Shown piece after piece: positions 3,140 to 28,864 of a stretch of DNA of 64,000 nt. The position numbers and the translations under genes were made by a program. The notes beneath the pieces are model-generated. The model made no database searches. It saw only the letters and a list, made by a program, of their open reading frames with translations, and was not told where the DNA came from. Source of the DNA: Nitrospirota bacterium (GTDB lineage Bacteria; Nitrospirota; Thermodesulfovibrionia; Thermodesulfovibrionales; Dissulfurispiraceae); NCBI GenBank assembly GCA_963790025.1, contig CAWBMP010000005.1, positions 224,001 through 288,000 of the forward strand. Reading direction: 5' to 3'. Positions within the stretch are counted from its first letter, which is position 1. Each line of letters begins with the position of its first letter.

Positions 3140-3772
3140 ATGCAATGGTCACTACATAAGCCAGGGGACCCGGGGAGGCCCGATGCAGATCCTCACGTAG
3201 ACGCTGTCAGGGGCAACCTTGTTTTTACCCGTCTTCAGGACCTTATTGCATGGGGCAGGAAGAATTCGATCTGGCCTTTCAATTTCGGACTTTCCTGCTG
3301 TTTTGTTGAAATGGCTACAAGCCTTACAAGCAAGTATGATATTGCCAGGTTCGGCGCCGAGGTGCTTCGCGCCACTCCCAGAGAGGCAGATCTGATGGTT
3401 ATCGCCGGCACGGTCTTTATAAAGGCGGCGCCGATTGTTGAAAGGCTCTACCAGCAGATGATGCTGCCGAGGTGGGTGATCTCAATGGGATCGTGCGCCA
3501 ACTCGGGGGGGATGTACGACATCTACAGCGTAGTTCAGGGAGTGGATTCGTTTCTTCCCGTAGACGTTTATATACCGGGATGTCCTCCGCGCCCCGAGGC
3601 CTTTATGGATGGGCTCCTTCTGCTCAGAGATGCTGTGGGCAAGGAACGGAGGCCCCTGAGCTGGGTGATAGGACCGCAAGGTGTTGAGCGGCAGGAACGC
3701 CCCATAATGCGCGACCTCAAGAGGGACGCAAGGCGGCAAGTTACTGAATTGCCTTCCCCTGACAAGATATAA
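3140..3772 (+). CDS. nuoB: NADH-quinone oxidoreductase subunit B
   Basis: [29 protein letters not shown] (N2 cluster ligands). Confidence 0.96.
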
Positions 3773-3813
3773 GAACAGGCAAGAGGTTAAAGGTTAAAGG
3801 TAACAGAGTTAAG

Positions 3814-5571
3814 GTGAATGGCGAGGTCGATATCATACGGGAATTGCAGCGCAGGTACGGTGATCAATTTTTTACGGCGCAGACAACGTGCGACGGCGTG
3901 CCTACGCTATGGGTGCAGAAGGAAAAGGTGCGGGATGCGCTCCGATACCTTAATTGTGAAGCGGACCGCCCCTATCGCACATTATATGATCTGACCGCTA
4001 TAGATGAACGTGTCCGCAAGCACCGGCACGACCAGCCTGACAGCGATTTTACGGTAGTCTATCATTTGTTGTCTTATGAGCGTAATGAGGACATTCGAAT
4101 CAAAGTTGCGCTCAAGGGAGAAAATCCTTCTATCGCTACTGTTACGGATGTCTGGCCGTCGGCCGACTGGTATGAGCGTGAACTATGGGACATGTTCGGA
4201 GTAACGGTAGAAGGCCATCCCAACCTTCGCAGGATCCTGATGCCCCCGCTCTGGAAGGGCCATCCCCTTCGCAAAGAACATCCTGCCCGCGGCACCGAAC
4301 TGGGTCCTTTTCCCCTGACGGTGAAGAGGGAGGAGGCCGAAGAACAGGCGTTGAAATTCAGACCTGAGGATTTGGGTTTGGGAGGTGAAGGCGGGCTGCC
4401 CGACGGGACCGAGTTGATGTACCTCAACCTCGGGCCTCACCATGCCGGGACGCACGGCATACTCCGCATCATGCTCGCTCTCGATGGCGAGGAAATCACC
4501 GATGCGGTACTCGATATCGGTTATCACCATCGCGGGGCTGAGAAAATGGGTGAGCGGCAGTCCTGGCATACCTTTATACCTTATACTGACCGCATTGATT
4601 ATATGGCCGGGGTTTTGAATAACTTTCCCTATGTCCTGGCTGTGGAAAAACTTGCCGGCATTGAGGTGCCTGACAGGGCAAAAGTGATAAGGATCATGAT
4701 TGCCGAACTGTTCCGCATTATCAGCCATCTTGTCTTTTACGGCACTTTTGCGCAGGATGTGGGTCAGCTTTCTCCGGTATTTTTTACGTTCAGCGACCGC
4801 GAACGCGCCTTTGATATTATTCAGGCCATATGCGGAGGCCGTATGCATCCAAGCTGGTTCAGGATCGGCGGTGTGGCACAGGACCTGCCGGACGGCTGGG
4901 ACTCCATAATGCGCGATTTTCTCACGTATCTGCCCTCAAGACTTGACGAGTACGATAAGATGGTTATGCAGAACAGCATTATAAAAGGCCGCACTAAAGG
5001 TGTCGGGACTATCACCCTCGATGAAGCAATTCAATGGGGCGTCACCGGTCCCAACCTCCGCGCCTGCGGCTTTGAATGGGACTTCAGGAAAAAAAGGCCA
5101 TACTCGGGATATGAACAGTTTGAATTCGATGTCCCTACCGGTGTGAACGGGGACTGCTATGACAGGGTGGCAGTGCGCGTTCAGGAAATGCGCGAGAGTT
5201 TGCGCATTATCGGGCAGTGTATCGACAATATGCCGCCGGGCCCTTACAAATCGGACCATCCGCTGGCAACACCCCCGCTTAAGGAACACACGATGCACGA
5301 CATAGAAACGCTCATCACTCACTTTCTCAATGTAAGCTGGGGGCCTGTTGTTCCTCCTGGTGAGGCTGCGGCGGGCATAGAGGGTGCAAAAGGGAACAAT
5401 ACATATTATCTTATCAGCGACGGCAATACATCATCATATCGCACACGCATCCGCACCCCGTCCTTCCCCAATCTGCAGACCGTGCCTTTGATGGCCCGCG
5501 GTCTGGAGATTGCTGACCTGATAGCTATTATAGCTACCATCGATTACGTCCTGGGAGATGTGGACAGATGA
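3814..5571 (+). CDS. nuoCD: NADH-quinone oxidoreductase fused subunit C/D
   Basis: [11 protein letters not shown] and GHPLRKE (NuoC part); [20 protein letters not shown] and C-terminal DVDR (NuoD part). Confidence 0.95.
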
Positions 5572-5587
5572 AAAGTAAAAAATATGA

Positions 5588-5719
5588 AACCACAGGGAAC
5601 ACAGAGAACGCCTCTGTAAGAAAGATTAAAGAAAGGATAAAAAGACTATGAGGGCACAGAGAAGAGATTTTTTTAAATCTCTGTATACTTTAGGAAGTTT
5701 CTCTGTGTCCTCTGTGGTT
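5588..5719. repeat. Intergenic palindromic element AACCACAG...CTGTGGTT (second copy of family)
   Basis: 21-bp terminal inverted repeat with 2 mismatches (5588-5608 / 5699-5719); inner AGAGATTT/AAATCTCT hairpin. Confidence 0.75.
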
Positions 5720-5733
5720 AATTTTTTTGAATT

Positions 5734-6210
5734 ATGTTGACGGAAAAGGAAATAGAAGAGATCGAAAAGGAACTCCGGCAGTGCGAGCATAAACGGGCAG
5801 CTTGCGTTGAGGCTCTTAAGATCGTACAGCGTGACCGCGGATGGATTTCCGATGAAAGCATCTGTGAGATTGCCCGGCTCCTGGAGATGACTCCCGAAGA
5901 GCTCGACAGCGTGGCGACTTTTTACAACCTTATTTTCCGCCGGCAGGTGGGCAGCCATGTCATCCTGATTTGCACTACGATAAGCTGTTGGGTGATGGGA
6001 TACGAGGACCTCCTCGATTACTTGCAGGAGCGGCTGGGGATCAAACCCGGAGAAACTACCGCCGACGGCAGGTTCACCTTGCTGCCCGTACCCTGTCTCG
6101 GCGCCTGTGACGGAGCGCCCGCAATCATGATGGATGACCTGCTTTATACCAATGTAAGCCGCGCTATTATTGATGATATGCTCAGCGCCTGTTGCGGGGG
6201 GCAAAGATGA
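5734..6210 (+). CDS. nuoE: NADH-quinone oxidoreductase subunit E
   Basis: VATFYN, CTTISC and CLGAC 2Fe-2S ligands. Confidence 0.95.
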   Translation: MLTEKEIEEIEKELRQCEHKRAACVEALKIVQRDRGWISDESICEIARLLEMTPEELDSVATFYNLIFRRQVGSHVILICTTISCWVMGYEDLLDYLQERLGIKPGETTADGRFTLLPVPCLGACDGAPAIMMDDLLYTNVSRAIIDDMLSACCGGQR

Positions 6211-7490
6211 TGGAATGTCCGCTTACCGGAAACATGAGGTCCGACGGCTTACCTCTGAGCATAAAGGAATACGAAGAGAAGGGCGGTTATCAGGCGGCGA
6301 AGAAGGCAGTGCAGGGCATGGCGCCGAAGGCGGTGCAGGAACTGGTAATGAATGCCAACCTGAGGGGCCGCGGCGGTGCGGGCTTCAACACCGGACAGAA
6401 GTGGAGCTTTGTTCCAATGGGCGATGCAGCGCCGCGTCCGAAGTACCTCATCGTTAATGCCGATGAGATGGAACCCGGAACCTTCAAGGACCGCATGCTG
6501 ATGGAGAAAAACCCGCATCAGCTGATAGAGGGAATGATTATCGGCGCCTTTGCAATACAGGCGGATATCTCTTATATATTCCTGAGGTGCGAATATAAGC
6601 TCGCTGAAAAGCGCCTGGGAGCCGCTATAGCAGAGGCATACGGCCGTCATTATCTAGGGAAGAATGTTTTCGGCTCCGGGTACAGTCTGCAGATGCGTCT
6701 GCATTCCAGCGCTGGCCGGTATATATGCGGCGAGGAAACGGCACTGCTGAATGCGCTGGAAGGGAAGCGGCCTACGCCGAGGGCGAAACCGCCTTTTCCG
6801 CAGGTGAGCGGCTTGTGGGGCAAACCTACGGTCGTTAATAATGTCGAGACACTTTGCAATGTGCCGCATATTGTAGATAAGGGTGCGGAGTGGTACAAGG
6901 GTCTCAGCCGCAGCCAGGACAGTGGGACCAAGATATACGGCGTCAGCGGGAGGGTAAGAAAGCCGGGTTTGTGGGAACTGCCGATGGGAACGACCATGAG
7001 AGAAATAATCGAGGAGCACGCGCGTGGCATGCGGGAAGGGTACCGGTTCCGCAGCGTTATCCCTGGCGGGGCCTCTACGGAGTTTCTCACTGAAGAGCAT
7101 CTGGACCTGAAAATGGATTTCGACTCGGTGCAGAAAGCCGGGAGCCGCCTGGGAACAGGCACAATGATTGTTATCGATGATCATACCTGTCCGGTAGGCG
7201 CCGTGCACAATATAGAGCAATTTTTTGCCCAGGAGTCCTGCGGATGGTGTACGCCATGCAGGGAAGGCTTGCCGTGGGTGGCAAGCATCCTCGGCGCTAT
7301 CGAAAACGGTCAGGGCAGGCCCGAAGATATGGAATTACTGGAACAGCACACAGACACTTTATGGCTGAACAAAACCTATTGTGCACTGGCGCCCGGTGCG
7401 ATGGAGCCCCTTAAGAGTGCGCTGAAAATATTCAGGGACGATTTTATGAGGCATATCACGGAAAAACGCTGTCCGTATAAAGACAGGTAA
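6207..7490 (+). CDS. nuoF: NADH-quinone oxidoreductase subunit F
   Basis: LRGRGGAGF, NADEMEPG, YICGEETAL, ESCGWCTPCREG; ATG at 6207 overlaps nuoE stop. Confidence 0.96.
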   Translation: MMECPLTGNMRSDGLPLSIKEYEEKGGYQAAKKAVQGMAPKAVQELVMNANLRGRGGAGFNTGQKWSFVPMGDAAPRPKYLIVNADEMEPGTFKDRMLMEKNPHQLIEGMIIGAFAIQADISYIFLRCEYKLAEKRLGAAIAEAYGRHYLGKNVFGSGYSLQMRLHSSAGRYICGEETALLNALEGKRPTPRAKPPFPQVSGLWGKPTVVNNVETLCNVPHIVDKGAEWYKGLSRSQDSGTKIYGVSGRVRKPGLWELPMGTTMREIIEEHARGMREGYRFRSVIPGGASTEFLTEEHLDLKMDFDSVQKAGSRLGTGTMIVIDDHTCPVGAVHNIEQFFAQESCGWCTPCREGLPWVASILGAIENGQGRPEDMELLEQHTDTLWLNKTYCALAPGAMEPLKSALKIFRDDFMRHITEKRCPYKDR

Positions 7491-7550
7491 AGGTAGAGGT
7501 AAAGGTTGAGGGTAAGGTCGATAAATGAAGGGACCCGGATTTAATTAGCA

Positions 7551-10289
7551 ATGGCTACTATTTTTATAGACAACAAACCTTATAAGGTTAAAGAGGGGGA
7601 CAACCTGCTCCATGCATGCCTGTCCCTGGGCTTCAATATACCGTATTTCTGCTGGCATCCTGCCATGCATTCGGTAGGGGCCTGCAGGCAGTGTGCGGTA
7701 AAACAATTTAAAGACGAGCACGATACGCGCGGCAGGATAGTAATGTCCTGCATGACACCTGCAGCGGACGGCACGCGCATATCGATTGACGATGATGAAG
7801 TCCGGGCCTTCAGAAAAAGCGTTATCGAGTGGCTGATGACCAATCATCCGCATGACTGTCCTGTCTGCGATGAAGGTGGAGAGTGCCACCTGCAGGATAT
7901 GACTGTAATGACAGGACACAGTTACCGCCGTTTCCGGTTCAAAAAGCGCACTTACCGAAATCAATACCTGGGTCCGTTCGTTAACCACGAAATGAACCGC
8001 TGTATTCAGTGTTACCGTTGCGTCAGGTTTTACCGGGACCATGCAGGGGGACGGGACTTCGATGTTTTTGCAGCGCATAATCATGTATATTTCGGCAGGC
8101 ATGAGGATGGCGTCCTGGGAAATGAGTTCAGCGGCAACCTTGTTGAGATATGTCCTACAGGCGTTTTTACCGACAAGACGCTTAAGCGCCATTACTCCCG
8201 CAAATGGGATTTGCAGACCGCTCCATCCATATGTGTGCATTGCGGAATTGGTTGCAACACTATTCCCGGAGAGCGGTATGGACACCTGAGGCGGATACAA
8301 AACCGTTATAACGGCGCTGTAAATGGATATTTTCTGTGCGACCGGGGACGCTATGGGTATGAGTTTGTTAACGATGAGCGCCGAATAAGGGAGCCCCTGA
8401 TCAAACGCCTGCCCCAGCATGCATTAAGCGGCGGTCCCGGCCTTCCTGTTCCAAAGGGAGAGGTCATGCAGCACCTGTCGCGGTTTTTCTATTTCGGCGC
8501 ACGGGTAATCGGCATCGGTTCTCCCCGTGCTTCGCTTGAAGCAAATTTTGCCCTTCGCTCGCTCGTCGGAGAAGAACATTTTTATCCGGGACTATCTGAA
8601 ATGGATGCTCTCCTGCTGGCCAAAATCATAAAGATACTCGAAGAAGGGCCTGCCCGTTCCCCTTCACTGCATGAGGCCGGGGCAGCCGACGCGGTTTTTG
8701 TTCTCGGTGAGGATGTGACCAATTCAGCGCCCATGCTGGCCCTTGCATTGCGCCAGTCAGTAAGGCGCGGGCCGATGGAAATTGCGAGGCGGCTGCATAT
8801 CCCGGAATGGGATGACGCTGCAGTGCGCGGGGCAGTTCAGCAGGAAAGAGGGCCGCTTTTCCTTGCGACGCCTTACAGTACAAAGCTCGATGACGTGTCC
8901 ACTCACGCATATCATGCAGCCCCTGATGACCTGGCGCGGCTTGGATTCGCAGTGGCCCATGAGCTGGATAGCAGTTCTCCGGCAGTGAAAGGTTTGCCGA
9001 AAAAGCTTCATATACTCGCTGTTGACATCGCACAGGCCTTAAGTCGGGCCCAACAGCCGCTTATAGTTTCGGGCACCGGCAGCGGCAGCGGGGCTGTAAT
9101 TGAGGCTGCTGCCAATATTGCGTGGGCGCTTTGCAAGGAGGGCCGTGCAGCAGGCCTCTCATTTGCCGCACCAGAATGCAACAGCCTCGGACTGGCGCTT
9201 ATGGGAAAAGGAAGTGTGAACGATGCATTCAAGGCAGTGCATGACGGCGCAGTGGATACGGCAATTGTTCTTGAAAATGATCTGTACCGGAGGGCGGAGA
9301 CAGAAGAGGTGAACAGGTTTTTCGACCGCTTGCGCCACGTGATTGTTATAGACCATAACGCTACTGAAACAGTTTCAAGGGCCGATATTGTGGTTCCAGC
9401 CGCCACCTTTGCAGAAGGGGATGGAACACTGGTGAATAACGAGGGTCGGGCACAGCGGTTCTATCAGGTTTTTGTGCCTGACGGAGACATACAGGAGAGC
9501 TGGCGCTGGCTGCGGGATGTCATGACTGCTGCCGGACGCCCGGGCGCAAAGGAATGGACGGGTCTGGATGATGTTGGACAATCCATGTCACTGGCGATGA
9601 CTAAAGCCATGCCTGCTTTCCGGGAGATAGCAAAGGCATCACCTCCCTCAGGATTCCGCATAGTGGGACAGAAAATTCCTCGTCAGCCTCACCGGTACAG
9701 CGGGCGAACAGCCATGCGTGCAGATATTTCCGTACATGAGCCGAAGCCTCCTGCGGACCCGGATTCGCCTCTTTCCTTTTCCATGGAAGGATTCGCGGGG
9801 GAACCGCCTGCCGCACTCATTTCCCGATTCTGGGCGCCGGGCTGGAACTCGGTGCAGGCGGTGAACAAATTTCAGAGTGAGATAGGAGGCCCGCTGCATG
9901 ACGGAGATCCGGGGCAGCGGCTTTTGGAACCGAACAAGGAAAGCGTGGTCCCCTATTTCAGCACGGCGCCGGAGGCCTTTTCAGTACGCGAAAATGCTTT
10001 GTTCTTTGTGAGAATGTCCCATATATTCGGTTCAGAGGAACTGAGTGCCGTTAGTCCCGCTATCAAGGAGCGCTCCCCTGCGCCGTACCTAGGGATCAGG
10101 CCGGGGGATGCCGCACTTTTACAGATAGGTGAAGGAGAAGAGACGCAGCTCAATATAAACGGCACGGATTATGTTCTGCCGGTCAAGTACCTGCATGAAC
10201 TGCCGGCCGGAGTAGGCGCGCTGCCTGCGGGGTTGCGAGGGCTCGAAGGAGTTTCACTGCCTGCATGGGGGAGCATAAAGAAACCATGA
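7551..10289 (+). CDS. nuoG: NADH-quinone oxidoreductase subunit G (long form with N7 cluster motif)
   Basis: [44 protein letters not shown]...CDRGR. Confidence 0.95.
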
Positions 10290-23900: not shown

Positions 23901-23914
23901 AGGTATAGTTGGTA

Positions 23915-24667
23915 ATGGATAATTCGCGACGGGTATTGGTTTTCGGAAGTGGCGACGAGATGGCGGATTTTATGGTGGAGCGGTGGAGTGAACTCTCCAG
24001 TTCTGCCATCGAAAGCAGGGGGTATTTTGCTGCGGCCCTTTCGGGAGGAGAAACACCGGTCCGTTTTTACCGCAAACTTGCTGCGCGGGGAGCAGGTTTT
24101 CAGTGGAACAAGATACATCTGTTCCTCGCCGACGAGCGCTTTGTCCACCCGGACCATACTGACAGCAATTACCATTTGCTCCGTGAGACACTCTTAAAGG
24201 ACCTGCCGGTCCCCGGCAGTAATATCCATGCGGTGACTACCGATGGACCGGACGCGCAGTTATCGGCGAGAAAATATGAAGAGGAAATGAAAAAGTTTTT
24301 TAAGACCACGGGGGAAGGCCTTCCCGAATTTGACCTTATTATGCTGGGCCTTGGTACGGACGGACATACCGCATCGCTTTTTCCAGGGGATAAGGCACTC
24401 GATGATACACGGCATCTTGCTTGTGCAGTGGACCTTGACAATGTCCGGCACGACCGGATTACGCTGACACTTCCGGTGATCAACAATGCCCGTATGGTGG
24501 TATTTCTCGTTAGCGGAAAGACCAAGGCATCGGTGTTCCGCGATGTTGTGGAGAGTAGGGACCACCATTTTCCCGCCTCACTGGTGGACCCTGAGAAGGG
24601 GAGCTTGTTGTTTCTCGCCGATACGGAGGCCGCACAGTATTTGACTGAAACTCACATCCGGCGATAA
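23915..24667 (+). CDS. pgl: 6-phosphogluconolactonase
   Basis: ALSGGETP, DERFV, SNY, LGLGTDGHTASLFP, RITLT. Confidence 0.94.
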   Translation: MDNSRRVLVFGSGDEMADFMVERWSELSSSAIESRGYFAAALSGGETPVRFYRKLAARGAGFQWNKIHLFLADERFVHPDHTDSNYHLLRETLLKDLPVPGSNIHAVTTDGPDAQLSARKYEEEMKKFFKTTGEGLPEFDLIMLGLGTDGHTASLFPGDKALDDTRHLACAVDLDNVRHDRITLTLPVINNARMVVFLVSGKTKASVFRDVVESRDHHFPASLVDPEKGSLLFLADTEAAQYLTETHIRR

Positions 24668-24880
24668 GGAGTTGTCATTCGCACTCTGACTTACTTTGCC
24701 ATAACGGCAATCAACTTTAGTAGACACTATTTGATCTGGTAGTATACAACCAAGTATAGCTTGCACCTGATACTTGACACCGGAGATTCTTTTTCAGGAC
24801 TCTCGATTTTCGTTACTAACCCTCGGACTTATGCTGATGAGCAGGATTGTGAAAGCTTAGATATGTCGTCCATGAGAAAG

Positions 24881-24907
24881 CTAAATGCACGAACGCAAGC
24901 CTGACCC
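24881..24907 (-). repeat. REP-like repeat, copy 1
   Basis: CTAAATGCACGAACGCAAGCCTGACCC, near reverse complement of the copy at 25363. Confidence 0.75.
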
Positions 24908-25128
24908 TCAAGCCTTCCCAGTATCTTTTCCCCAAGTGCGAGGATGTGTTTGTTTGCTTCTGGGTTGGGGAGTCCAGGCTTGTTTTCTGATAAGATTTTA
25001 CGGATACTTTCTGCGGACTTTAAGATAACATCGTGATCAAAGCTGTATCAGCTAAAACTGATCGGAAAGGGAGCGCTGGAAGGAGTATAATAAATCATAA
25101 ATAAAAAACAATTTAATTCGGAGGAAAT

Positions 25129-25293
25129 ATGATTATGACTGTAGAAGAAGCTAAAAAGAAATGGTGTCCTTTATTCAGTATTATGAAAGATAGTCACACA
25201 TACTGCGAGGCATCTGACTGCATGATGTGGAAAGCGGTCAGGATGGGTGACGTTATGGAAGGATGCTGCAGTCTTGCGGGGAGGGAAGCATAA
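25129..25293 (+). CDS. 54-aa Cys-rich small protein (absent from the ORF track)
   Basis: GGAGG RBS; my translation MIMTVEEAKKKWCPLFSIMKDSHTYCEASDCMMWKAVRMGDVMEGCCSLAGREA*. Confidence 0.65.
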   Translation: MIMTVEEAKKKWCPLFSIMKDSHTYCEASDCMMWKAVRMGDVMEGCCSLAGREA

Positions 25294-25362
25294 AGATTAA
25301 AGAATCAAGGGGAATCACGAACACAAATGAAAGGAGGATTGAGCCCATGAAAAGGAAACAAT

Positions 25363-25390
25363 GGGGTCAGGCTTGCATACGTGCATTTAA
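25363..25390 (+). repeat. REP-like repeat, copy 2 (left of RAYT)
   Basis: GGGGTCAGGCTTGCATACGTGCATTTAA with internal TGCA...TGCA dyad. Confidence 0.75.
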
Positions 25391-25410
25391 GTGTACTATA
25401 TTTTGGCATC

Positions 25411-26331
25411 ATGGCAAGGCCGCCACGCATAGAATTTCCCGGAGCGTTTTATCATGTAATAGTCCGTGGCAATCTGAAGCAGGACATTTTTATAGATGAA
25501 CAAGATAGGCTTGAGTATCTTGAGCGCATAAAACGTTATAAAGAAAAATGCGGATTTATTTTTTATGCATACATCCTTATGACAAACCATGTACATTTAC
25601 TCATTGAGACCCCCAAAGCGCCTTTATCAAAGATAATGCAACTTATAAATTTCACATACACACAGTATTTTAATAAGAAATACAATAAGGTCGGGCATCT
25701 TTTTCAGGGCAGGTATAAGTCTTTTCTGTGTGACCGGGACGAATATCTTTTAGGGCTGCTCAGATATATACATCTGAATCCGGTACGTGCAGGAATAGTA
25801 AGCAGACCGGAGGCTTACAAATGGAGCAGTCATAATCAATACTTAAAGGAAGGTAATGGGATAGTTGACGCTGAGAGGGTTTTAAGGCTTTTTTCGGAGA
25901 AAGTATCAGAAGCTCGGAAGCGATACAGAGGTTTTGTAAAAGAGGCGATAGGCGCTGAAAGAGACGACTCGTTTTACAAGGCTGTAGATCAGCAGATAGT
26001 AGGAGGGGATAAGTTTTTAGAAATAATAGAAGATAAAATTGATGAATTGGACAGGCCGATAAGAAAGCTTACGTTGAAAAAGGCCATAAAGGCAGTTGAG
26101 GAAGTGACAGGCGTACTTTGGGATGAGATAAGCTCCCGAAGCAGGAGCAAGGAAGTAATATTTGCGCGAGGATTATTAGTTGGGGTATGGAGAGAGGCGG
26201 GGCATCGGATGGTGAACTTACAGCCCCAACTGAGGAGGGACTTATCAGTGCTTTCAAGATTGTCAAAAATCTCAGAGAGTGAAAGAGGACGAAAAGCCAT
26301 GAAACAAATATTTCACATGCTAAATGCATGA
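25411..26331 (+). CDS. Y1/HUH REP-associated tyrosine transposase (RAYT-like) with C-terminal helical extension
   Basis: MARPPR start, YHVIVRGN, MTNHVHLL (HUH), GHLFQGRY, YIHLNP, WSS; lower GC than flanks. Confidence 0.88.
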   Translation: MARPPRIEFPGAFYHVIVRGNLKQDIFIDEQDRLEYLERIKRYKEKCGFIFYAYILMTNHVHLLIETPKAPLSKIMQLINFTYTQYFNKKYNKVGHLFQGRYKSFLCDRDEYLLGLLRYIHLNPVRAGIVSRPEAYKWSSHNQYLKEGNGIVDAERVLRLFSEKVSEARKRYRGFVKEAIGAERDDSFYKAVDQQIVGGDKFLEIIEDKIDELDRPIRKLTLKKAIKAVEEVTGVLWDEISSRSRSKEVIFARGLLVGVWREAGHRMVNLQPQLRRDLSVLSRLSKISESERGRKAMKQIFHMLNA

Positions 26332-26345
26332 ACGCAAGCCTGAAC
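26320..26345 (-). repeat. REP-like repeat, copy 3 (right of RAYT), interrupted by IS110
   Basis: CTAAATGCATGAACGCAAGCCTGAAC; the missing CCC resumes at 27807. Confidence 0.7.
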
Positions 26346-26375
26346 ATCCCGCTGGAATTTTCAATATATTTTTTC

Positions 26376-27574
26376 TTATTTAGATAAGATGTACCCTCTG
26401 TTCTCCTTCAGCATCTTGAAAATAACACGGCAAAGATGACGACCAAGCGCACGTAGTGCCTGGTTATGTTTCTTGCCTTCAGCTCTTTTTTTCTCATAAT
26501 ATTGTTGAGACTGCGGAACTTGTTTTCGGTGCCGATCTACGGCAACCATCATTGCGGCCTTAGCCCGAGTATTAACCTGCGTTGGTGGTTTTGATCCTTT
26601 TTGCTTGCCTGAACTATTGTCAAGATTCGCCATCCCAATATACAGAGCCAGACTTGCTTCGCTGCCAAAGCGCTCGATAGTTCCAATCTCTCCGGCGAGT
26701 TCAGATGTACAAATGGAACCGAATCCTGGAATGGTTGCGAGCGTTTGCGCAATATCCGAGCCGTGTGCAACACCCTCCATCTTTGCTTCAAGTGATTTTA
26801 TCTTGGCATGGAGTTCCATCACGCGGATTGCATCTTCCTGGATCATTTCACCGACCCACTCGACGTCGTGACTAAACTGTGCTGTTTTCTGCCATTCAAC
26901 AATAACAGAGGCATATTTCTTACCAATGCCCGGATCTTGCGGATAGTTGTTTCCCGCATGCGTGCAAGCGTGCGAAGGTCATCCGTGCTGGTCAGAAATC
27001 CAAGAAACCACATATTGTCGGCCTCACCGGTAATCTCCAGAAGTCCCGGACATACAGCGTGAAGATCGGCCTGTAGGTTGTTTACTACCCGTACTCGCTC
27101 ATCGACCAAACGACGCCGGCGCCGTGATAGCCGCTTTAGAATGTCGTTGTCCCGCGGCGTTTTGCGTACCTCCTGCAGCACATCCTTGGCTATCGGCAGA
27201 TGATCTCGAAGCTGAAAAAGCTCCAGTCCTTTCCTTGCGTCGATTGCATCGGTCTTCGCGGCACCGGGGAATATCTCCTTGAATCGAGCAAGCTTGAGAT
27301 TGTTGATATTGAAGAGGCGATAATTGCGGGCTCGAACGAGCGTGTCCAGCGGACGTGCGTAGCCGTTGAAGCCCTCCATTGCTACGGCAACGGGACAACT
27401 AAACCTTTGCTCCTGCTTCTCGATGCGACAGAAGAATTGCCGGAACCCTTCAGGTTCATGCACGATTGAGAATTCATCGAGGACTTCACCGCTGGATAGG
27501 CCGATTGCAACGTTGTGACTGCGGCAGCCAATATCGACGCTTACACGCAGTTCGAGGGGATCATCTTTTTTCAT
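26376..27574 (-). pseudogene. IS110 recombinase, single frameshift near 26930
   Basis: DEDD residues (VDIG, AMEG, KTDAID); C-terminal TIPGFG, NSSGK, RALGRHL; adding one G in CCGGGC gives KIRGIGKKYA and fuses the two ORFs. Confidence 0.88.
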
Positions 27575-27589
27575 GTAGTCTCCTTTGCA

Positions 27590-27795
27590 GACAAGATTAT
27601 CATCCTCAGGTCTCGTCTACTTACAGAGCCACATTTGGCACCATCCCGGTCGACCCTTTTGAGGATGATGCAGATGACGGAGGCGGCATTTCAGACTCAA
27701 GTGAGCCTGAATGAACAGGCCACTGACCCCACAAGCCACACCCCCGTTAAGCATATCTTACATGAATAAAGCTGCCATAGTCATCTGCATAAATC
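27590..27795 (-). ncRNA. Putative IS110 bridge RNA
   Basis: Two stem-closed domains (11-bp 27668-27678/27780-27790; 10-bp 27599-27608/27660-27669) whose loops match the IS ends and the REP target. Confidence 0.65.
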
Positions 27796-28070
27796 CTATG
27801 GTAGACCCCAGCACCAGCAATCTTTCGAGCTTTACAAAAAAGGTTACCCCGTGAAGCAGATACGGGATACTGTAGAAAAGGAATTCAAATAATAACTCCC
27901 ATATGGTGGCAGTTGATGTACAAAACCAACACTGCCGCTGAGATGGCCGGGACGTTTGTTCCTTAGTGAACATCCGTTTCTCGGCTATGCTCATCGATGC
28001 GTGTTATAGAAAAAGCACCTTGTAACCCCCTAATTCACAACGCAGACGACCGCCTGCCTTATGAGCAGTA

Positions 28071-28415
28071 TCAGGTGCAGCCAGCAGGTTGCGGAATCCC
28101 CGCATACCTGCAGATCCGTTGTAGAGGCTTTTCAGGGAATAGTGAGTACAGCACCTTTATCGAGTATCGCTCACTGCCCAACTGCCGGTTTAACCTTTTC
28201 ACAATCACTTTCGGCATCGGGCTAATGTTGAATGTTCGGTAATAATCGCGAGCAAAACGGATTACCTGCCAGTGTTCATCAGTCAGCAACATGCCGTCTG
28301 CCGCACTGTAATATTCGGCAACCTGCGGAGACCAGTCATCAGGGTTGGCAAGGAAGCCGTCGGCATCCAGCTCAATGGTTTTACCGCCTATCGTAATATG
28401 GTTGTTTGCATCCAT
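28071..28415 (-). CDS. dsrC: DsrC/TusE-family sulfur relay protein with C-X10-C terminus
   Basis: DADGFL...DDWS, LTDEHWQVI, LYSLFP, CRYAGIPQPAGC; family is clear, DsrC versus TusE function is less so. Confidence 0.82.
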   Translation of the reverse strand: MDANNHITIGGKTIELDADGFLANPDDWSPQVAEYYSAADGMLLTDEHWQVIRFARDYYRTFNISPMPKVIVKRLNRQLGSERYSIKVLYSLFPEKPLQRICRYAGIPQPAGCT

Positions 28416-28864
28416 TGCTGACTTGATTCCTCATCTTTCGCATCAGGACTGTCGGTTCCGCACATGAATTAGTTCATCTCATAACCTACATTATTCTTGA
28501 TAAATTGTCGAGTCTCGCGCTGTGACGCTACCAGCCCTGCCTGCCTGTTGCCTCAAGTAAAAATCCATTCGAAAATATTTCTTTTTAACGGGTTACATCA
28601 CGCTATAAGCAGCCTGGCTTTCACTGTTATTTTTGAAAACTAGCAATGTAGTTGAGATGTTCGGAGCGCCAGTTACTTGGTGGAACAAATAATCCATGAG
28701 GGAATAAGAGCAGAACATTTTGATATGATGCCGCATGGCGATACTGTATAAAAGCGTCCACAGCATGACGAAATTGCTCCCTCCTTTAACGAAATAATAA
28801 ATAAATATCTGGAAGCTCTTAGATTAGTGACTATTCCAGCTAACAGCGTTTGCATAGGGCATCA

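Follow-up and report, generated by a model that had tools for sequence, protein, structure and literature searches.

The window analysed here is a stretch of 64,000 nucleotides from a Nitrospirota bacterium (assembly GCA_963790025.1, contig CAWBMP010000005.1, positions 224,001 to 288,000), and its subject is an insertion sequence (IS) of the IS110 family that lies beside a gene for a Y1 (HUH) tyrosine transposase. Along the plus strand, the locus runs from a 6-phosphogluconolactonase gene through a repeat copy, a small open reading frame (ORF), a repeat in the opposite orientation and the Y1 gene to a split repeat. To the right of the Y1 gene follow the inner part of this third repeat, the minus-strand IS110 element, the missing repeat tip at 27806-27810 and a DsrC gene. 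We propose, with a probability of roughly 0.85, that a bridge RNA directed the IS110 element to the 3' terminal inverted repeat of a TIRtron-like Y1 unit, where it integrated in the outer tip. The features of the locus are as follows.

23909-24667: 6-phosphogluconolactonase-type gene, left neighbour
24882-24908, minus strand: third repeat copy, head AGGGTCAGGCTTGC at the 24908 end, 24/28 identical to the 5' repeat
24970-24982, plus strand: degenerate repeat head GAGTCCAGGCTTG, three mismatches to the 13-nt head, facing the 24882-24908 copy
25362-25389, plus strand: 5' terminal inverted repeat of the Y1 gene, head TGGGG-TC-AGGCTTGC, TC at 25367-25368
25411-26331, plus strand: Y1 (HUH) tyrosine transposase gene, RAYT-like/TIRYT (PF01797, E 3.8e-16)
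26321-26343, minus strand: inner part of the 3' terminal inverted repeat, overlapping the last codons of the Y1 gene
26341-26337, minus strand: putative right target AGGCT, next to the copy of the TC core on the right-end side at 26343-26342
26344-27805, minus strand: IS110-family element, 1,462 bp long with a single core copy included (TC at 27805-27804)
26344-26375, minus strand: right end (RE) of the element, ending in ..AGCGGGATGT, with a -35-like TTGAAA at 26364-26359; conserved in relatives
26376-26846, minus strand: C-terminal piece of the transposase, 156 amino acids, Transposase_20 domain
26843-27574, minus strand: N-terminal piece of the transposase, 243 amino acids, DEDD RuvC-like domain
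27798-27803, minus strand: TACCAT at the start of the left end (LE), a -10-like hexamer and, by pairing with the right donor guide, the right donor sequence too
27806-27810, minus strand: outer tip of the split 3' repeat (putative left target TGGGG)
28071-28415: DsrC-like gene, right neighbour

The boundaries of the element are defined by its two junctions, which in element orientation read GCTGGGG-TC-TACCAT.. on the left and ..GGGATGT-TC-AGGCTTGC on the right. The same TC dinucleotide therefore stands at both junctions (GA on the plus strand, 26342-26343 and 27804-27805), and there is no inverted repetition between the ends TACCAT.. and ..GGGATGT. Excision of 26344-27805, with one core copy included, restores a repeat that matches 25362-25389 at 25/28 positions, its head being identical at 15/15. 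The Y1 gene is flanked by these two copies in inverted orientation, 25362-25389 on one side and 26321-26343 plus 27806-27810 on the other.

For comparison, we used 80 of 244 confirmed homologous loci, which were found by their transposase (55-87% identity) and do not include the source genome. They come from Nitrospirota, Thermodesulfobacteriota, Pseudomonadota, Acidobacteriota, Verrucomicrobiota, Binatia and others, and the closest relatives of the IS among them lie in Nitrospirota and Thermodesulfovibrionales genome bins. Across these loci, all left ends begin with TC followed by TACCAT and all right ends finish with ..GGGATGT followed by TC. The dinucleotide is found at both junctions in 61/61 unique sites, with variable neighbouring positions. 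Because the bases preceding TC differ between the copies of multi-copy genomes while TC stays constant, TC is the core common to donor and target, as CT is for the bridge-RNA element IS621. A GT core, the register of an earlier note on this DNA, was rejected, since the base before TC varies in multi-copy relatives and the right guide would mismatch such a core.

Between the left end and the start codon lie 230 non-coding nucleotides that are conserved in the window and in 78/80 loci. The structure tested for this region comprises a closing helix, a first internal loop with a 12-bp stem and an inner hairpin, and a second loop of like design. It was evaluated on an alignment of 47 distinct sequences, with seven helices and 41 pairs, over which 94.1% of the cells are paired and 24 pairs show compensatory change. 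None of 500 shuffles reached any of the five measures, and slid partners gave 35-49% pairing. The predicted 5' RNA has the two-loop bridge-RNA architecture of the IS621 type. Two other foldings were set aside: in a single-sequence minimum free energy fold of the 5' region, the guides pair with one another, and the comparative structure was preferred; in the RNAalifold model, the partner of the left donor guide was the upstream strand of the donor-loop stem, for which a stem with a supported downstream partner (helix 4) was substituted. The parts of the RNA, all on the minus strand, are assigned as follows.

27676-27748: target-binding loop region, outer stem 27748-27735 with 27687-27676, inner hairpin 27723-27701
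27725-27731: putative left target guide UGGGGUC, the same sequence as left flank plus core and thus pairing with the bottom strand
27691-27697: putative right target guide AGUCUGA, pairing with top-strand TC-AGGCT through one U:G wobble
27599-27669: donor-binding loop
27648-27640: putative left donor guide CGGGAUGGU
27620-27616: putative right donor guide GUAGA

The geometry of the guides was taken from the published IS621 description (PMC11208160) and the handshake rule, by which the base after each 3' guide pairs across, from Hiraizumi et al. (PMC11208158). More specifically, UGGGGUC within the 5' side of the first loop, UUGUGGGGUCA, equals the left flank and core, and AGUCUGA within the 3' side, UUGAGUCUGAAAU, is complementary to TC-AGGCT with one U:G pair. 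A27690, which follows the right guide, can pair with the last base of the RE and occupies the handshake position.

This assignment is supported by the joint variation of guide and target. For the 65 loci with a readable right flank, the frequency of Watson-Crick pairs between right guide and flank at positions 8-14 (core plus five bases) is 1, 1, 0.91, 0.86, 0.72, 0.63 and 0.69, and then drops to ~0.17. When the guides were shuffled among the 63 unique pairs, 0/2000 arrangements reached the observed score. Taking a single site for each distinct guide (n=34) gave 3.82 against 2.84 +/- 0.15, and 0/5000 permutations attained this score. The next five bases (positions 15-19) gave no covariation signal, with 2303/5000 permutations. 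These comparisons show that covariation of the putative right guide with the right flank extends over the core and 5 nt exactly. The closest relative (L001) carries the same right guide as the window and lies in a site TC-AGACT, which it fits perfectly.

The left side behaves differently from the right. GGGGTC is in place as left guide in 69/78 related elements from many phyla. The predicted left guide shows no tuning to this genome, and what is retuned between elements is the 5-nt right guide alone. In the left flank, G occupies position -1 at 61/61 sites and positions -4 to -2 at 75-89% of sites. The TGGGG-TC-AGGCT in the 5' repeat of the Y1 gene (25362-25376) is unoccupied and fits the guides of the IS as well as the occupied 3' site does.

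In the second loop, the right donor guide matches the left end of the element, and a joint change from C:G to U:A is seen in 7/47 sequences. C27615, the base after GUAGA, is able to pair with the G that ends the left target, the same G that is present at 61/61 sites. The left donor guide matches the RE terminus over 7 nt (27640-27648 against 26342-26351), followed by mismatches at the last RE base and at the second core base. Read from the sequence, the TTGAAA of the RE and the TACCAT of the left end would come to lie 17 nt apart once the element is circularised.

We then compared the neighbouring Y1 gene and its repeats with the known classes of such units. Di Nocera (2013) described RAYT-like genes whose terminal inverted repeats share the motif GGGGWSAS, named them TIRYTs/TIRtrons, and noted that such repeats may make up families comprising single copies, dimers and clusters (PMC3733652). 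According to Quentin (2018), most TIRYTs belong to subclass 2.1, with C-terminal helix-turn-helix (HTH) domains of the Bac_DnaA_C, HTH_23 or HTH_28 type, the consensus GGGG[AT][CG]A[CG] and no structures like those of repetitive extragenic palindromic (REP) sequences (PMC6006769). The window neighbour resembles this class in several respects. It is a RAYT-like Y1 gene with a weak C-terminal HTH and inverted repeats headed GGGGTCAG, which carry the published GGGGWSAS motif on both flanks; one window repeat overlaps the 3' end of the gene, and the repeats occur as singles and dimers. The occupied sequence is shown by these comparisons to be the GGGGWSAS-type head of the repeat. The Y1 protein scores 79.2 bits on the NCBIfam RAYT model (cut-off 80) and 19.9 on the IS200 model. 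Its C-terminus gives 21.1 bits for the DnaA-type HTH Bac_DnaA_C, below the cut-off of 31.5, and the homologues at L014 and L065 score 36.7 bits on Bac_DnaA_C and 23.5 bits on HTH_23 (cut-off 24.6), respectively.

A strong hairpin was not found in the repeats: the three window copies fold at -2.7 to -4.6 kcal/mol (z -0.10 to -2.25), and the repeats of three relatives fold no better than shuffles. Because this hairpin test was weak, we dropped the REP label. The neighbour appears to fit the TIRYT/TIRtron class better than RAYT/REP, the repeat count here being that of the 64 kb alone. The entire window contains one IS and one Y1 gene, together with three repeat copies and one degenerate head, all within 1.5 kb of the gene. 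The 24882-24908 copy and the degenerate head, ~60 nt away, stand head to head, opposite to the head-outward doublets at other sites. Elsewhere, in Rhodospirillum rubrum (L086 452-470 and 1216-1234), the repeat head is a perfect palindrome, GGGGTC-A-GACCCC, and some family members are thus hairpin-forming. Between two repeat copies and upstream of the Y1 gene, a Cys-rich ORF of 54 amino acids (25129-25293) gave no match in Pfam or NCBIfam, nor any similarity to the 'CPCC family cysteine-rich protein' that a Pseudomonas plasmid encodes upstream of its Y1 homologue (L083 77-319).

Whether the tie between IS and Y1 repeats goes beyond this locus was assessed in the relatives. One could suppose that the element recognises a motif of ~11 nt that happens to occur in the repeat, with no tie of the clade to the repeats of Y1 transposases. 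The motif is short, some sites look unlike the repeat, and 46 to 50 of 67 sites lack a partner repeat or a Y1 gene in the available DNA. The distribution of Y1 genes argues otherwise. Among the 63 loci with at least 700 nt past the right end, 10 have a Y1 homologue or remnant within 250 nt of the RE side, and none has one within 450 nt of the left end. These are homologues at L004, L010, L011, L014, L033, L049 and L065 and fragments at L032, L035 and L058. At 7/67 sites (the window included), the far side of the gene carries an intact partner repeat in inverted orientation, at a distance of 854-995 nt, and 10 more of the 67 are short inverted doublets of the same repeat type, with the partner 22-206 nt away. 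Weaker or more distant partner matches occur at 4/67 sites, and 46/67 have none within the available DNA.

Furthermore, GGGGWSAS is exact in 24/61 unique sites and 51/61 are within one mismatch of GGGGTCAG. The T at +7 (84% of sites) and the ATTT at +11 to +14 are kept, and both lie outside the guide footprint. The head motif is also the published repeat signature (PMC3733652), and it recurs around homologues that were found independently of the IS. Among 18 plasmid records of Y1 homologues, of which the flanks of six were read, four (Sporomusa, Legionella, Pseudoalteromonas and Rhodospirillum) stand between inverted repeats whose head is (G/A)GGGTCAG; a fifth, on a Pseudomonas plasmid, has flanking repeats headed GGGGACAG, and the sixth (Skermanella) has only direct copies, upstream. 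Taken with the Y1 neighbours on the RE side, these observations make a purely incidental match improbable.

Several further observations were made in these loci. At L049, three Y1 homologues with repeats (50-754, 5104-5499 and 7490-7912) are found in a span of 8.5 kb, and the IS occupies the 5' repeat of one of them; the Y1 unit looks multi-copy there. Extra direct copies of GGGGTC(A) are found 10-20 nt upstream of the left junction at L017, L022, L033, L049, L059 and L065, and arrays of repeat heads adjoin plasmid Y1 genes at L084 (383-440) and L085 (1219-1340). In a Methylococcales genome (L074, ~3640-7250), one of seven IS copies measures 3,606 bp between its ends versus 1,577 bp in its six sisters; the C-terminus of its transposase is displaced by ~2 kb, and the additional DNA may be an insertion or cargo.

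The earlier note had arranged the target loop in another way, with UGGGGUCAG and UUCAGGCU both serving as target guides in the sense of the flanks and an original site one base longer than the sister repeats GCAAGCCTGACCC. The sister repeats are present as it described (24895-24907, plus strand, and 25364-25376, minus strand), and both strings lie where it placed them. TGGGGTCAG has its sole two copies in the 64 kb at 25362-25370 (plus strand) and 27723-27731 (minus strand); 0.55 copies are expected by chance, and 7/100 shuffles reach at least two. TTCAGGCT occurs on the minus strand at 26337-26344, where it equals the present RE junction, and at 27704-27711. By itself this 8-mer is a weak match, with six copies in the window versus 2.43 expected and 4/100 shuffles reaching at least six.

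The guide role assigned to the 8-mer did not survive. In the RNA, UUCAGGCU (27711-27704) forms the loop and 3' strand of the inner hairpin (helix 3), which is kept by compensatory changes, 7/8 of its pairs changing on both sides. Moreover, the 8-mer is found in 15/79 sequences (78 loci and the window) regardless of the flank; L001 has it with the flank AGACT. The published rule requires a 3' guide complementary to the top strand (PMC11208160), with which AGUCUGA complies, and AGUCUGA also covaries. The AG after UC in the other string varies, its first place being A, C or G, while the target keeps A at 90%, and the 9-mer is consequently two bases longer than the guide. The extra base disappears as well, given the TC core at both junctions and a restored head without any difference from its sister. 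We regard this earlier geometry as very improbable.

Least credible of all is the reverse order of events, in which the Y1 unit or its repeat was laid down beside a pre-existing IS110: the two elements are directly adjacent and Y1 enzymes are thought to mobilise such repeats (PMC3733652), yet the repeat is split, with its TGGGG tip beyond the left end and the remainder beyond the right end, the joined pieces match the intact sister, and the same split recurs at L004, L010, L011, L014 and L049, each with an intact partner. Since the two halves of the split repeat fit together, it is clear that the IS entered the repeat and not the reverse.

Several points weigh against guided insertion of the IS110 element into the tip of a TIRtron-like repeat. 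The left donor guide is mismatched at the core, a mismatch that is conserved throughout the clade and departs from the scheme known for IS621. AGACT is the perfect match of the right guide, which fits the window site AGGCT only with one U:G wobble, and L002 has the same right guide at a poorly matching site. Sites unlike the repeat are found at L002, in the L020/22/24 group and at L061, L070 and L071. IS621 has a nearly invariant T as the second base of its core (PMC11208158), in contrast to the TC core found here, and the sequence similarity to IS621 is marginal. An Rfam scan of 24500-28500 with E up to 1 matched no family. The exact element is represented by one copy, its source genome being absent from the loci compared, and the support is computational throughout.

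We nevertheless favour this reading, because the matches stand at the exact junctions and are accompanied by the behaviour of the 80 homologous loci, which takes the observation beyond what the strings alone would offer against chance. In substance, the proposal of the earlier note that the IS110 is programmed to target the REP of a neighbouring RAYT is retained as regards a bridge-RNA IS110 with a loop that matches the repeat head and an insertion exactly there, and is revised as regards the host, which is better described as TIRtron-like than as a RAYT with REPs. Its wider conclusion that one element parasitises the repeats of another holds.

The transposase itself identifies the element as a member of the IS110 family. 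The DEDD domain (PF01548) is matched at E 3.9e-22 and 79.1 bits versus a cut-off of 29, and the C-terminal Tnp domain (PF02371) at E 3.8e-15, with an SSG motif that is invariant in relatives and contains candidate catalytic serines. D14, E67, D109 and D112 are invariant across 16 relatives and probably correspond to the catalytic residues of IS621. On NF033542, the NCBIfam model of IS110 family RNA-guided transposases, the two window pieces score 67.8 and 92.9 bits, each below the cut-off of 140, and the intact homologue P0004, 81% identical to the N-terminal piece, scores 169.9 bits. A phmmer search of PDB sequences returned only marginal matches, to IS621 (E ~1e-3) and ISCro4, and by this measure the element is only distantly related to IS621.

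The reading frame is broken near 26932-26936, where intact relatives of 399 amino acids read ..TIRKIPGIG.. and the window reads ..TIRKIRALV... Compared with relatives, the window DNA is one base short in a C/G run, which splits the gene into pieces of 243 and 156 amino acids. A programmed frameshift was rejected, as other truncated relatives break at different places. The copy in the window is probably defective, being either dead or mis-assembled at the C/G run. Just upstream of the left end at L001, a fragment of another IS110 transposase gene (residues 105-150) lies on the opposite strand at 3619-3756.

By analogy with IS621, the element would excise as a circle, and the RE-LE junction of this circle would rebuild a promoter of the form TTGAAA-N17-TACCAT. 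The RNA would then hold the donor junction in its second loop and the target in its first, and the recombinase would exchange strands at the TC core. The left guide is fixed throughout the clade on GGGG-TC, the conserved tip of this family of repeats, and the 5-nt right guide alone is retuned.

We lean towards a broader interpretation, in which the whole IS110 clade is a specialised hyper-parasite of TIRtron/TIRYT repeats, its left guide and core hard-wired to GGGG-TC and its right guide retuned locally. The GGGG-TC tip is presumably the part of the repeat that the Y1 enzyme itself needs. Within this interpretation, and held with the same modest preference, the right guide would be adjusted to the local variant of the repeat, in many cases by way of U:G wobbles that accommodate both A and G variants. 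This IS clade would then follow another family of mobile elements across phyla, and its insertion sites would map families of terminal inverted repeats that are otherwise unannotated.

The clade also provides a natural data set of 61 unique sites and 34 distinct right guides, which shows the guide positions that are fixed and those that are reprogrammed. It covers a distant branch of IS110 with a TC core, a shorter left guide and frequent U:G pairing, and it connects that branch with the TIRYT/TIRtron elements, a little-studied group in which the IS occupies the GGGGWSAS tip of the repeat. In the parts of the two TIRtron papers available to us, insertion of IS110 into TIRtron repeats is not mentioned ('IS110' occurs 0 times in PMC3733652 and once, as a comparison family, in PMC6006769), and a link between IS110 and TIRtrons was not found in the literature searched, supplements excluded.

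Insertion of IS110-type elements into host repeats was reportedly described by Choi in 2003 and by Tobes and Pareja in 2006. IS4321/IS5075, IS110 relatives of the IS1111 group, are said to insert into terminal inverted repeats that belong to Tn21-family transposons; by description, they differ from the window element in belonging to another subgroup and using another host element, a DDE transposon.

The closest mechanistic reference is IS621, which inserts into the REP repeats of E. coli (PMC11208160). Both elements share a recombinase with DEDD and Tnp domains and a 5' RNA with target and donor loops (PMC11208160, PMC11208158). In both, the 5' side of the loop has the sequence of the left flank and core, the 3' side is the complement of the core and the right flank, and each 3' guide is followed by a handshake base; an identical dinucleotide stands at both ends, and the insertion lies in a host repeat. 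In contrast, the proteins are barely alignable (E ~1e-3), and the core is TC in the window and CT in IS621. The left guide of the window element spans 4-5 nt plus the core versus 7 + 2 in IS621, its right guide 5 + 2, and at the core its left donor guide does not match perfectly. In the window, the target is the tip of a non-palindromic terminal inverted repeat, whereas that of IS621 is a REP hairpin.

A second reference is ISPpu9 of Pseudomonas putida, all copies of which are described as occupying the same position within a host repeat, with a repeated dinucleotide on either side (PMC8450116), and for ISPpu10 a preprint claims a second layer of recognition in the target beyond RNA pairing. 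The sites of the window clade are likewise conserved outside the guide footprint. The targets differ: ISPpu9 and ISPpu10 use GC-rich REP stem-loops of one species, whereas the window repeat folds weakly and the same head serves as target in many phyla. Choice of host repeats by bridge RNA is already known for IS110 elements, from IS621 and ISPpu9/10, and the window locus is a further example.

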